64,000 bases of DNA from an uncultured Candidatus Saccharibacteria bacterium. GTDB taxonomy: Bacteria; Patescibacteriota; Saccharimonadia; Saccharimonadales; JAGQNJ01. The notes below the pieces were generated by a model, which was given only the letters and a program-made list of their open reading frames with translations, was not told where the DNA came from and ran no database searches. Positions within the stretch are counted from its first letter, which is position 1. Every line of letters starts with the position of its first letter. The DNA lies in the NCBI GenBank assembly GCA_964491925.1, contig CAZBGZ010000002.1, positions 113,492 to 177,491 on the forward strand. The letters run 5' to 3'. Both the position numbers and the translations under genes were made by a program. Of this stretch, positions 12,190 through 53,797 are shown one piece after another.

Positions 12190-13401
12190 TTAATTACCAT
12201 GTAACAGTCTCACGGCTGCATCTTTTTGTGGATCTTGTTTGGTCTTTATGTCTTCGTCCGTAAATTTTATCTTTTTGTCCGGATCGATTCCTTGTTTATC
12301 TATGTTCCGGCCACCAGGGGTATACCAACGAGCAATCGTAACTTTTAGCACACCTCCGCTAGGAATTTGAATTAAATTTTGCACACTTCCTTTCCCATAA
12401 GACTTCTCGCCCATAAGTGTTGCTGCCCTATTATCTTTTAGGGCTCCGGCCAATATCTCGCTGGCGCTGGCGCTACCACCGTCGATAAGTACGACTGTTG
12501 GTTTGCCACCCAAAATTGGGGCACTAGTGTCGGATGTGTGCGTTTTTATTACCTCTCCACCACGTCGCTCGGTCAAAACAACCTTCCCTTCGCTAATCCA
12601 GAGCTGACTCAAACTAACCGCGCTGTTTAGTAACCCGCCTGGATTCCCCCTAACATCAATAATTACGCCCTTGACCCCTTTATTTTTAAACTCTTGGGCA
12701 GCTTTTTCTGCCAAGTCAGCAGTTTCTTCACTGAAGGTTGTTATTTTCATGTATCCGATATTGCCGTTGATAATTTTGGATTCTACACTGGGTATTTTTA
12801 TAGTTTCTCTAACAATTTCAAAATTAAGCTCTTTACCATCTCTAGCTACCTGCAACTTTACGGTTGAACCTGATGGTCCTCTGATAGAATCTACAGCCTG
12901 GCTGATAGTCATACCTGAAGCAGGCTTGTCATCAATCGACACAATAACATCTTTTGATTTGAGACCTGCTTTTTGAGCTGGGTATCCAGCTATTGGTGAA
13001 ACGACAACTATGCTGCCCCCATCTTTCCCGAGTTCTGCGCCAATACCGCTAAAAGTACCGTTCAGGCTGTCATCAAAATCTTTTGTTTCTTTAGGGTTAA
13101 GATACTCTGTATAAGGGTCACCTGTGGATTCAGCCAAGCCATGTTTGATGCCATTTAGTAGTGTTTCGGTTGTCAATTTGCCGTCGTAGTTTTGTTTTAT
13201 TTCATCGTAAACTTGCTCTACGCTACCATAGTCCAGATTTTTGGGGAGCGTGGCATTCTCACTTTGAACCTTATTGATATAATCAGCCGTTATTCGTCCT
13301 GATCCCAAGCCCCATCCAAGCATAAAAATTGCAACGGATGCCAAAACTATTACAGAATATCGCCCAAGAAATCTAAACGAACTTTTTTTGTTTGATGACA
13401 T
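12190..13401 (-). CDS. ctpA: S41 family C-terminal processing peptidase with PDZ domain
   Basis: 403 aa. N-terminal TM, a PDZ domain ('SPIAGYPAQKAGLKSKDVIVSIDDK') and catalytic motifs 'GGSASASEILAGALKD' and 'GEKSYGKGSVQ'. Confidence 0.85.
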   Translation of the reverse strand: MSSNKKSSFRFLGRYSVIVLASVAIFMLGWGLGSGRITADYINKVQSENATLPKNLDYGSVEQVYDEIKQNYDGKLTTETLLNGIKHGLAESTGDPYTEYLNPKETKDFDDSLNGTFSGIGAELGKDGGSIVVVSPIAGYPAQKAGLKSKDVIVSIDDKPASGMTISQAVDSIRGPSGSTVKLQVARDGKELNFEIVRETIKIPSVESKIINGNIGYMKITTFSEETADLAEKAAQEFKNKGVKGVIIDVRGNPGGLLNSAVSLSQLWISEGKVVLTERRGGEVIKTHTSDTSAPILGGKPTVVLIDGGSASASEILAGALKDNRAATLMGEKSYGKGSVQNLIQIPSGGVLKVTIARWYTPGGRNIDKQGIDPDKKIKFTDEDIKTKQDPQKDAAVRLLHGN

Positions 13402-25074: not shown

Positions 25075-25192
25075 CTCAGTTTTATTTTACTACAAAAGGG
25101 GTAATCTAGAGAGAACAAAAGCTCACCCGGCCTTAGGCTAGTTAGAAGATAAAGTGAAGCGCGCAAATATCCCACTACAATTTGCATGTTTA

Positions 25193-25311
25193 GGCCGTAA
25201 TAGAGTAGTAAGATGCGCGGCGACAGCGAGTATCGTAAATTGGACGTACTTTCGGTACGTCCAATGCGAAACACAGCTGACAACAAAGCAGATTGCTGCT
25301 CTATTACGGCC
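25193..25311 (-). repeat. structured GC-rich intergenic element, copy A (13-bp terminal inverted repeats, internal hairpins); homologous to 53669-53797
   Basis: GGCCGTAATAGAG (25193-25205) is the exact reverse complement of CTCTATTACGGCC (25299-25311). There is an internal perfect 10-bp hairpin, TTGGACGTAC/tttcg/GTACGTCCAA (25240-25264). The 3' arm overlaps the heliorhodopsin stop codon (25304-25306). The strand is assigned from the flanking transcription direction. Confidence 0.55.
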
Positions 25312-26113
25312 GTAATGCGCCGAAGAAGACTTGCCACGCAAGTGCCGACTTAGCAACCAGGCTCAGAATCATATAAACACGCTCGCCATACAAATACTCT
25401 GCCCACTTGCCTTTTCGCTTGTACTGCAAATACATATTTATTGCAAAACAGTTAAAGAACAAGAATAGGCTGCCGTAAATAAAGTATACGAATGTTGGAA
25501 TTTGCCCACTACCATACACATTTGCCCCCCAGAAATAAATTCCTATAACAATCCAAGGTACAATACCAGCCTTGCTACCCAGAATGAAACTTAGCCAATT
25601 AACCTTTTTAGACTTGCCATTCCAAGACTCCATTAGTAACCCTGTGCCATTCATTATTGCCGTAAGCATAAATATCATCAGTAAACTGGATAAGTCATAA
25701 ATGCCTGACAGCATCGCAATTGCGATCATCATGGTGCTTGCACTAAATGCATACTCTATCCAACGAACCTTATTTATGTGGTTTTTAAGATTTTTCTCGT
25801 AGGATTTTCGCAGTTTTGTGGCAACCAGTGCATGTGCAATTGCTGACATAAAAAAGAAAGCCGCTACTATATATGCCAGGTTCACATCAAACAAATTTTG
25901 AGTTGCTGGGACTAATTGTGGCTGCCCCGCGGAAGAACTAAGAGTATCTAGCGTGATAAAATTTGTACTTACCGGGAAGGTTGCAGCTTTTGCTAGCAAG
26001 ACTACTGCGATACCCTGCACAGCGTGTAGTATGGCCAGAGTTACGTTCCATTTATGAAGGCTTTCAAATGAAATTTTTTGTTTTTTCTTCAATGATATTG
26101 ATTGTTTTTTCAT
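25304..26113 (-). CDS. heliorhodopsin
   Basis: 269 aa with 7 hydrophobic helices. By-eye alignment to heliorhodopsin 48C12 as I remember it gives 'RWIEYAFSASTMM' (48C12 'RWVEYSLSSSVMI'), 'GIVPWI' and 'SLFLFFNCFAINMYLQYKRKGKWAEYLYGERVYMILSLVAKSALAWQVFFGALRP', near-identical to the 48C12 C-terminus. The Schiff-base Lys is in 'SLVAKSA'. Confidence 0.85.
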   Translation of the reverse strand: MKKQSISLKKKQKISFESLHKWNVTLAILHAVQGIAVVLLAKAATFPVSTNFITLDTLSSSAGQPQLVPATQNLFDVNLAYIVAAFFFMSAIAHALVATKLRKSYEKNLKNHINKVRWIEYAFSASTMMIAIAMLSGIYDLSSLLMIFMLTAIMNGTGLLMESWNGKSKKVNWLSFILGSKAGIVPWIVIGIYFWGANVYGSGQIPTFVYFIYGSLFLFFNCFAINMYLQYKRKGKWAEYLYGERVYMILSLVAKSALAWQVFFGALRP

Positions 26114-53092: not shown

Positions 53093-53300
53093 ACTCTTTC
53101 TCCTTAGAAATATAAAAATCACCTCGAAAGGATTTGTCTGGATCCCTAATAGGGAGGTACCATCCAGATTCCTTCAAGGTGATTTCCTTAAAAGCACTCG
53201 TTTGTCAGCTGTTTCGGGCTTACCCGGTGGGTTCTAATCGACCAGTCAGATCTTTCTTCCCACTCCTCGCAGTTGATAGCTGCTACTAACGGACTAACTA
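53093..53300 (-). promoter_or_regulatory. T-box riboswitch leader of ileS (Ile specifier AUC candidate, intrinsic terminator)
   Basis: On the minus strand the T-box core is 'AAUCUGGAUGGUACCUCCC' (plus 53152-53170). The terminator arms are 'AAATCACCTTGAAGGAATCTGGAT' (53162-53185) and 'ATCCAGACAAATCCTTTCGAGGTGATTT' followed by a TTTTTAT run (arm plus run, 53112-53143). A hairpin 'GCAG-CUAUCAA-CUGC' (53269-53283) displays AUC followed by A. The candidate promoter is TAGACT-17-TATAGT (53331-53303). Confidence 0.7.
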
Positions 53301-53632: not shown

Positions 53633-53668
53633 GCTTATAGGTTACCACAATTAACTAGGTCTTGTGAG

Positions 53669-53797
53669 CCCTAGGGACACATAGGTAGGCAGAGTGCGCG
53701 ACACGGCCGAAGTACGCAATAGAGATGTACATACAATACATTGACCGCGTACAAGAGGCCCTACAACAATGCAGTCTATCGCCTATGTTTCCCTAGG
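53669..53797 (-). repeat. structured GC-rich intergenic element, copy B; homologous to 25193-25311
   Basis: CCCTAGGGACACATAGG (53669-53685) pairs with CCTATGTTTCCCTAGG (53782-53797) with one mismatch. A nested hairpin has GTACGC (53712-53717) pairing with GCGTAC (53747-53752), enclosing ATGTA/TACAT. The 3' arm overlaps the nrdJ stop (53793-53795). It shares 'tag..a.(a/g)tgcgcg' and 'acaacaa(a/t)gcag' plus a 7-nt spacer with copy A. Confidence 0.55.

Follow-up and report, generated by a model that had tools for sequence, protein, structure and literature searches.

A hairpin repeat of about 120 bases at the nrdJ stop codon of a Saccharibacteria chromosome and its relatives at bacterial gene ends

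The window analysed here is a stretch of 64,000 nucleotides from an uncultured Candidatus Saccharibacteria bacterium (contig CAZBGZ010000002.1, positions 113,492 to 177,491). It is a gene-dense chromosome segment with a GC content of about 42%, a GC skew that is negative throughout and about 85% of its genes on the minus strand. Between the stop codon of nrdJ and an 88-amino-acid gene the window carries a long hairpin sequence, which we call copy B; a second one, copy A, lies between the stop codon of a heliorhodopsin gene and a gene for a HAD hydrolase. The four genes that flank them are all encoded on the minus strand, and the closest named homologs of nrdJ and of the heliorhodopsin gene are from Saccharibacteria/Saccharimonadales. 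An earlier note, made from the letters of the sequence, had taken A and B for two copies of one structured RNA element. Every string and coordinate it gave is present in the sequence, and its interpretation was partly supported: the two copies belong to an uncatalogued family of structured hairpin repeats of about 120 bases, which occur in several groups of bacteria and lie at the stop codons of housekeeping genes.

Copy B is closed by terminal arms of 16 nucleotides (nt), 53670-53685 and 53782-53797, which are 94% complementary, and the 3′ arm includes the TAG codon of nrdJ, as had been described. The plus strand of copy B folds with -54.4 kcal/mol (z = -6.5 relative to shuffles), that of copy A with -67.2 kcal/mol (z = -9.05). 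In copy B the UGC of the 5′ conserved block pairs with the GCA of the 3′ block and forms helix P2. Both copies have the two blocks, with the 3′ block 7 nt from the 3′ arm in each of them, and the blocks proved to be true motifs of the family. The CAACAAUGCAG of the 3′ block is invariant across all five B-site variants. The proposal that the blocks are conserved held at the level of the family but not throughout the orthologs, where they drift (TACGAG and CCAACGAAGTAG in A′, the ortholog of copy A; TTAACG at the B site of locus L214). The arms had been thought unrelated in sequence between the copies; this view had to be given up, as they have a weak consensus in common.

A formal alignment of the two copies was better than shuffled controls (Smith-Waterman score 150 versus 84 ± 13), but other stretches of the window reached 143 and 139. 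Plain pairwise alignment was therefore rejected as proof of homology, and being only marginal it was replaced by tests with covariance models. Model R1, built from copy B and its ortholog B′ (locus L003) only, found copy A over its full length and on the same strand with 42.7 bits (E about 3e-7, E-values being rough), the next unrelated match having 12.7 bits. The reverse complement of copy A, an equally long hairpin, was not reported by R1 (less than 8 bits). A and B are thus related in an orientation-specific way and, as judged from the models, are copies of one element. Copy B itself scored 151.7 bits with R1, 140.6 bits with model R2 and 51.9 bits with the family model R3 (E about 7e-11).

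Further copies were searched for with a pattern consisting of the two blocks and with models. The pattern returned 25 metagenome loci, a number near chance expectation. R2 and R3 gave full-length matches of 26-104 bits in 13 of these loci and detected extra copies outside the pattern. About 17 further full-length copies were found in this way, in Paceibacteria, other Patescibacteria and one Proteobacteria genome bin; the hosts are listed by the sequence databases as Pacebacteria/Paceibacterota, a Patescibacteria bacterium and a 'Proteobacteria bacterium' genome bin. As a control of specificity, 1.58 Mb of actinobacterial nrdJ loci and of viral contigs that had matched a looser two-block pattern were scanned with a single match of 19.6 bits (E = 0.13). 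The looser pattern was abandoned because it was swamped by chance matches in the collections. A phage or plasmid origin was also considered and dropped: there were no matches, and the single viral pattern match fails the model. No copy was detected in about 300 kb of other Saccharibacteria.

The copies can be dense. Locus L232 has six of them on one strand within 13.6 kb, and L237 contains another copy on the same 90-kb contig. Three of the six are arranged nearly in tandem (L232 5847-6376) between a ChaN-like gene and a gene for an AMP-binding enzyme; these three form a diverged sub-family (UGCAAGGC...GCAACRNCGCA) alongside canonical copies on the same contig. The same locus encodes, at 12612-13139, a domain resembling the Cap15 cyclic-dinucleotide receptor. 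L229 and L242 have two copies each, flanking lepA. Neither copy of the window matched Rfam 15, even at E-values up to 10, and BLAST found no match in E. coli genomes; a relation to the E. coli REP sequence (GATGCGGCG) was rejected. Searching the literature by motif strings and for hairpin repeats in candidate phyla yielded nothing specific.

The family fold is a five-helix rod (Table 1). Covariation was assessed in an alignment of 15 sequences made with MAFFT and not fitted to a structure, in which RNAalifold predicts 33 pairs. Compensatory double changes occur in 26 of the 33 pairs, 84.8% of the cells in paired columns can pair compared with 30-41% when the partners are slid, and none of 500 shuffles reached the observed values. 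Pairs with compensatory substitutions across independent sequences, the generic hallmark of a structured RNA, are thus present, and the suggestion that the helices are held in place by different sequences was borne out. Copy A is a canonical member (98 bits). Copy B is an outlier (52 bits), deviating from the consensus by AGAG-UGCGCG-ACAC, by ACAACAAUGCAG-UC and by an AUGUAC/AUACAU apex.

Table 1. Features of copies A and B, of the genes they abut and of the family consensus
Feature	Position	Strand	Remarks
Copy B, whole element	53669-53797	+	129 bases; divergent family member; between nrdJ stop codon and 88-amino-acid gene
Copy B, P1 5′ arm: CCTAGGGA.ACATAGGT.GG.AGA	53670-53693	+	minimum-energy and centroid fold; inverted repeat
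Copy B, 5′ conserved block UGCGCG (TGCGCG in DNA)	53695-53700	+	family consensus AGA-UGCGCGGCG
Copy B, distal domain	53705-53760	+	three helices: P3, P4 and apical P5
Copy B, P3: GGCC/GGCC	53705-53708 / 53757-53760	+	
Copy B, P4: GTACGC/GCGTAC	53712-53717 / 53747-53752	+	
Copy B, apical P5: GATGTA/TACATT	53724-53729 / 53737-53742	+	
Copy B, 3′ conserved block ACAACAAUGCAG (ACAACAATGCAG in DNA)	53763-53774	+	family consensus ACAACAAAGCAG-AU
Copy B, P1 3′ arm	53775-53797	+	holds nrdJ stop codon 53793-53795
nrdJ, B12-dependent ribonucleotide reductase	53793-56570	-	stop codon inside copy B 3′ arm
Copy A, whole element	25192-25311	+	canonical member; 3′ arm overlaps heliorhodopsin stop 25304-25306; R1 42.7 bits, R3 98.4 bits
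Copy A, 5′ block UGCGCGGCG	25214-25222	+	
Copy A, apical hairpin TTGGACGTAC-TTTCG-GTACGTCCAA	25240-25264	+	carries family motif CGUAC..GUACG
Copy A, 3′ block ACAACAAAGCAG	25280-25291	+	
Heliorhodopsin gene	25304-26113	-	last three codons and stop (CGG CCG TAA, as listed) within copy A P1 stem
Consensus P1			variable, 16-20 base pairs, weak consensus AGGCCGUUCAAAAGUAG...
Consensus after P1 5′ arm			AGA-UGC-GCGGCG
Consensus P2			3 base pairs, UGC/GCA, tandem G-A positions on its flanks
Consensus asymmetric internal loop			GCGGCG on one side, ACAACAAA opposite
Consensus P3 and P4			two variable helices
Consensus apex			GAG-N-CGUAC, variable loop, GUACG-N-UGAG
Consensus 3′ part			ACAACAAA-GCA-GAU, then P1 3′ arm

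The history of the two copies could be followed in related contigs. Those with nrdJ at 96-98.5% protein identity carry copy B, with variations. In L003 and L215 copy B differs from that of the window at about 13% of its sites, and in L214 it is far more diverged. In L216 the P1 3′ arm (in the orientation of the element) has gained 4 nt by duplication of GGTG, and in L213 (12774-12848) the whole distal half of copy B, window positions 53705-53760, is deleted precisely between the two GGCC repeats; the deletion and the duplication resemble the slippage that is typical of long palindromes. A′ is carried by contigs whose heliorhodopsin is 96% identical (L207-L211). At 88% identity (L212) the A site has a stem of 13 base pairs (bp) only, whose loop still resembles the AUCUGCUUUGUUGU block. 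Relatives with nrdJ 81-82% identical have a spacer of 40-48 nt without the element. The A and B sites are filled in all close relatives and there are no new insertions elsewhere in the overlapping regions. In the Saccharibacteria lineage of the window both copies are old and vertically inherited.

Between A and A′ about 30% of the sites differ, while the divergence at third codon positions of the heliorhodopsin gene is 28.5%; for B and B′ the values are about 13% and 20.7%. Among the 44 pairs compared between the orthologous A copies, 11 have changed on both sides and are still paired, as against 0-2 in slid controls; the 11 include P2, which has gone from UGC/GCA to UAC/GUA. The heliorhodopsin gene of L212 has synonymous changes, and the far arm of the hairpin has changed to match them. 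Drift at approximately the synonymous rate with restoration of pairs by compensation indicates selection on the hairpin itself rather than a decaying dead insertion. Since Patescibacteria genomes are very small and have little non-coding DNA, an element kept by compensation over a synonymous divergence of 30-50% is likely to be functional.

Three other interpretations of the variation were discarded. A mutational hotspot was suspected from L207 and L208, which differ at five sites of the element (4%) and have identical near flanks; with a region-wide divergence of 2.7% this is unremarkable. Concerted evolution or co-evolution of A and B does not fit with B″, which keeps GCAACAATGCAG in a lineage whose A′ has lost the blocks. 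A short hairpin before the 88-amino-acid gene in L004 and L005, taken for an 'empty' outer stem of copy B, aligns to the 40 conserved nucleotides that precede the start codon. After nrdJ most element-free relatives have ordinary hairpin-plus-T-run terminators; in two other Saccharibacteria loci (L155 10256-10325 and L135 12790-12860) unrelated hairpins of 66-70 nt follow nrdJ directly. L002, a short-read contig of the same strain, is broken inside copy B and ends 29 nt past the nrdJ stop. Such hairpin repeats may fragment metagenome assemblies and may hence be under-counted.

The position of the family relative to genes is narrow. In 17 of 23 copies the 3′ end of the element, in its own orientation, falls within -12 to +4 nt of the stop of a convergent open reading frame, frames being counted from 80 amino acids upwards. 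The earlier note had left open which genes carry the element at their 3′ end; the abutting genes include nrdJ, the heliorhodopsin gene, lepA, secA, tuf, leuS, murJ, fpg, gspF and an ftsX-like gene. Its observation that both copies have the same orientation relative to the upstream minus-strand gene extends to a rule of the family. The gene-proximal arm often holds the stop codon that is used, the consensus ...CUUAUGAG... reading CTCATAAG in the sense of the gene. Exceptions are the copies in the tandem run and those upstream of metK (L234) and lepB (L241), both same-strand genes. The heliorhodopsin of the window belongs to PF18761 and has hundreds of close homologs in Saccharibacteria. All 13 C-termini inspected (the window protein and 12 homologs) end in (A/T)LRP, and the C-terminal ALRP is native in all homologs.

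The two strands of the element are not equivalent. In 21 of 23 copies the more stable fold belongs to the strand antisense to the abutting gene; mean energies are -50.5 kcal/mol (antisense, plus) versus -41.5 kcal/mol (Wilcoxon p = 7e-5); for copy A the plus strand has approximately -65 and the minus strand -54 kcal/mol. Random 120-nt stretches from the background lean the opposite way by 2.6-3.7 kcal/mol in three of four loci, and there is almost no lean in L239. The A lineage has eight G-U pair types and no A-C mismatch. Family-wide the ratio of G-U to A-C is 63:20 in one alignment and 64:38 in another, both alignments being model-fitted and therefore leaning somewhat towards G-U. Cytosine deamination on the exposed sense strand (the lagging-strand template) predicts the opposite bias, so that we read the asymmetry as selection on the single-stranded plus strand. 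The form under selection is single-stranded and antisense to the gene that the element abuts; in the window it is the plus strand, which is also the strand that had been picked on first reading.

We interpret copy B as a diverged and copy A as a canonical member of a widespread family of non-coding, interspersed palindromic repeats of about 120 nt, broadly comparable to REP/BIME, ERIC, Correia or REPIN elements and maintained by selection as a single-stranded hairpin; we rate the chances of this interpretation as evenly balanced. Identical loop motifs in unrelated phyla and the high density in one genome point to horizontal spread and to a shared factor encoded by the hosts or by the element. 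The family would have arisen and spread as a non-autonomous mobile hairpin, reaching a high copy number in at least one genome. Its copies would persist because the folded plus strand acts at gene ends, most likely as RNA from convergent or antisense transcription. Our best guess is a boundary that would stop or process transcripts running backwards into the gene, with the internal loops as the binding site for a conserved factor. In its most specific form the proposal reads as follows: a new class of structured non-coding RNA or folded single-stranded DNA, present in Patescibacteria and in at least one proteobacterium, would be made antisense to housekeeping genes exactly at their stop codons, and its conserved, purine-rich loops (GCGGCG opposite ACAACAAA, tandem G-A) would recruit a conserved factor and so create a polar gene-end boundary, for example one at which convergent antisense transcription is stopped or processed. 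We regard this form as possible but rather unlikely.

A number of observations weigh against the interpretation of the family as a mobile, selectively maintained hairpin. The window and the 7 kb beyond its start, about 72 kb, contain only A and B. The full architecture is dispensable in some lineages, as the distal half of B was lost in L213 and the A site of L212 has retained a short stem only. When the B lineage is taken alone there is no clear strand preference. Consensus scanning found no -10 box at a conserved distance upstream of the element, and according to a terminator scan neither strand of A or B has a T-run. The copies showed no target-site duplication, short ones being hard to see at palindromic ends; a clean comparison of a filled with an empty site was not found either, nor was a transposase linked to the element. 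Mobility is deduced solely from the number of copies and their occurrence in different phyla. Beyond the element, L229 and L242 have an ordinary terminator, which places the element inside the 3′ untranslated region and shows that it is not itself the terminator; the element certainly lies within a sense 3′ untranslated region or an intercistronic transcript.

Several more specific signals were examined and rejected. TANNNT hexamers are without positional enrichment, so a dedicated plus-strand promoter was dismissed. A TTGACC-18-AACAAT site inside copy B as promoter was dismissed too, since it is absent from A and deleted in L213. Duplication of a TA or YTAR target was not supported. The flanks of 15 copies have no T-runs, with the exception of L241.

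The label of a functional structured RNA stands in one respect, as the pairing is conserved, and falls short in another, as the plus strand has no conserved promoter or terminator; judged from sequence, the label is unproven. With six copies in 13.6 kb of one genome bin the element is a multi-copy interspersed repeat, and it can be grouped with palindromic repeats of the REP, ERIC and MITE type at least as well as with classical RNA genes. The alternative that takes it literally would make the family one of small-RNA genes, each encoding a rod of about 120 nt on the plus strand, convergent with the neighbouring gene and binding a protein through its G-A-rich loops, with copy number reflecting gene duplication. 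Strong covariation, loop nucleotides that are invariant across phyla and the better folding of the plus strand in 21 of 23 copies speak for such genes, as does the closure of both ends by a long stem, seen in many stable RNAs; the copies before metK and lepB, moreover, precede same-strand genes and are not at stop codons. Six copies in 13.6 kb, three of them nearly in tandem, are unlike an RNA gene, and the missing promoter-like box and terminator, the deletable distal half, the drift of the blocks in orthologs and the absence of any Rfam match argue in the same direction. We consider small-RNA genes an improbable but tenable explanation.

A second alternative sees in the element a site on single-stranded DNA, the folded plus (bottom) strand serving as substrate of a recombinase or of an HUH or tyrosine transposase, comparable to attC, to REP/RAYT or to the ends of IS200/IS605, with an orientation set by the direction of replication. 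An imperfect palindrome of about 120 nt that directly follows an open reading frame, often overlaps its stop codon, keeps one orientation and one fold while its sequence varies, and folds better on the strand antisense to that frame does resemble attC. The lack of target-site duplication is what single-strand mechanisms predict, and GTAGGCC...GGCCTAC brackets one copy, at L232 3614. The plus strand, rich in C, is the antisense strand of about 85% of the genes; judged by GC skew and the direction of the genes, the favoured strand would lie on the leading-strand template. For attC bottom strands in chromosomal integrons a leading-strand-template arrangement has been reported. By inspection, however, RYYYAAC/GTTRRRY core sites are at the ends of no copy, the GTAG tag is found in one of 24 copies only, and no recombinase is encoded in the loci examined. 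The neighbours are not cassettes but syntenic housekeeping genes (nrdJ, ileS, lepA, secA, tuf, murJ), whose order is the same in relatives without the element. IS200/IS605 elements use the lagging-strand template, unlike the favoured strand here, and tolerance of G-U pairs, like the tandem G-A motifs, is more usual in RNA. A DNA site of this type seems unlikely to us.

The least probable alternative, an oversized sense-strand hairpin that terminates or stabilises the mRNAs of nrdJ and the heliorhodopsin gene, the similarity of A and B being incidental or convergent, has in its favour that relatives carry their hairpin-plus-T-run terminators at the same place after nrdJ, that both strands fold well and that the sense strand of the B lineage equals or exceeds the plus strand in stability, but it is very doubtful given that no T-run follows the element on the sense strand, that L229 and L242 have a separate canonical terminator beyond it, that the motifs are conserved across phyla and the model matches orientation-specific, that the sense strand has A-C mismatches where the plus strand has G-U and that the background of the same loci leans the opposite way.

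The surroundings of copy B have some features of their own. The spacer that separates the start codon of the 88-amino-acid gene from copy B (53633-53668, about 36-40 nt) is nearly invariant in all relatives that carry the element, and has one or two changes in L214 despite a third-codon divergence of 43%; it is probably a promoter or leader of the 88-amino-acid gene. On the minus strand 47 codons are open in frame past the nrdJ TAG through copy B (53653-53795), encoding a Cys-rich peptide. Readthrough of the nrdJ stop codon was considered and rejected; L003 and L213 share the open frame of the window, but the sequence is TAG TAA in L214 and TAA TAG in copy A, and the open frame is probably a coincidence of the palindrome. 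Upstream of nrdJ a strong hairpin of about 56 nt (GGGGCUGCCUCAAG...CUUGAGGGAGCUGUCCCC; 56640-56695, minus strand) begins 8 nt past the nrdR stop. Its sense strand is the more stable one (-31.6 versus -24.6 kcal/mol), it has no Rfam match and it is unrelated to the family. Hairpins at gene ends are not a habit of this genome, because only A, B and the nrdR-end hairpin stand out. An inverted repeat with 26-nt arms, 77% complementary and separated by 18 nt (53116-53185), takes in the first bases of ileS and reaches back into a 243-nt intergenic region; having no Rfam match, it is not recognisable as a T-box. Across the whole window neither tRNA genes nor Rfam matches at gathering thresholds were found.

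Among known repeats the closest in habit are the REP, BIME and REPIN sequences, which are multi-copy, non-coding palindromes located mainly downstream of coding regions and sometimes clustered (Di Nocera et al. 2013, PMC3733652; Nunvar et al. 2010, PMC2817692). A REP unit measures 20-40 bp and has GTAG or CGTC as a tag on one of its ends, and dimers of REP units fold into larger hairpins; roles in termination and mRNA stability have been proposed, and they are not accompanied by target-site duplication (PMC3733652; PMC2817692). Like REP and BIME the present element is multi-copy, clustered and located at gene ends (17 of 23 copies at stops, six copies in 13.6 kb of L232). Unlike REP it is a single rod of about 120 nt, whose conserved sequence is in the internal loops and not at the foot of the stem. 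GTAG is at the foot of the hairpin in one of 24 copies only, and E. coli genomes have no match. The element occurs in Patescibacteria and has no known link to a RAYT transposase; no RAYT (Y1) transposase gene was seen in the loci that were annotated.

Repeats of the miniature inverted-repeat transposable element (MITE) type include ERIC/IRU (127 bp), Correia/NEMIS (107-155 bp) and RUP (107 bp) (Delihas 2008, PMC2229807). They are shorter than 200 bp, have terminal inverted repeats and form a long stem-loop; they are found at gene ends, where they can supply stop codons, and the effects of ERIC depend on its orientation (PMC2229807). The element shares with them a size below 200 bp, the lack of coding capacity, terminal inverted repeats and a whole unit that is one long stem-loop. 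It differs in that none of 24 copies has TA at the two ends of the maximal hairpin or immediately beyond them and that there are no flanking direct repeats. Its arms vary and its internal loops are conserved, the reverse of a terminal repeat recognised by a transposase. Spread across phyla and a favoured strand antisense to the abutting gene are further differences. Unlike a mobile MITE it shows no presence/absence polymorphism among close relatives; the only relatives with an empty B site are those whose nrdJ is about 82% identical, and their intergenic DNA is no longer alignable.

With the attC sites of integrons the element has in common an imperfect palindrome of similar length 3′ of an open reading frame, often over the stop codon, in fixed orientation, with a variable sequence and a conserved fold of the antisense strand. 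It lacks R″/R′ core sites at the ends inspected, an integrase and a cassette array, its neighbours are syntenic housekeeping genes, and its conserved internal-loop motifs have no counterpart in attC. In contrast to elements derived from IS200/IS605 the structured plus strand is not on the lagging-strand template, and in contrast to an intrinsic (Rho-independent) terminator the hairpin is not directly followed by a T-run. The structure is optimised on the antisense strand of the abutting gene, whereas a stabiliser of the 3′ untranslated region or a terminator would predict the opposite. The gene-end boundary mechanism, if true, would have no described counterpart in REP, ERIC or MITE elements. 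In the level of covariation and in its conserved loops the family is comparable to the curated motifs of structured RNAs in Rfam, and a model of it would prevent false open reading frames and misplaced gene ends at such loci.

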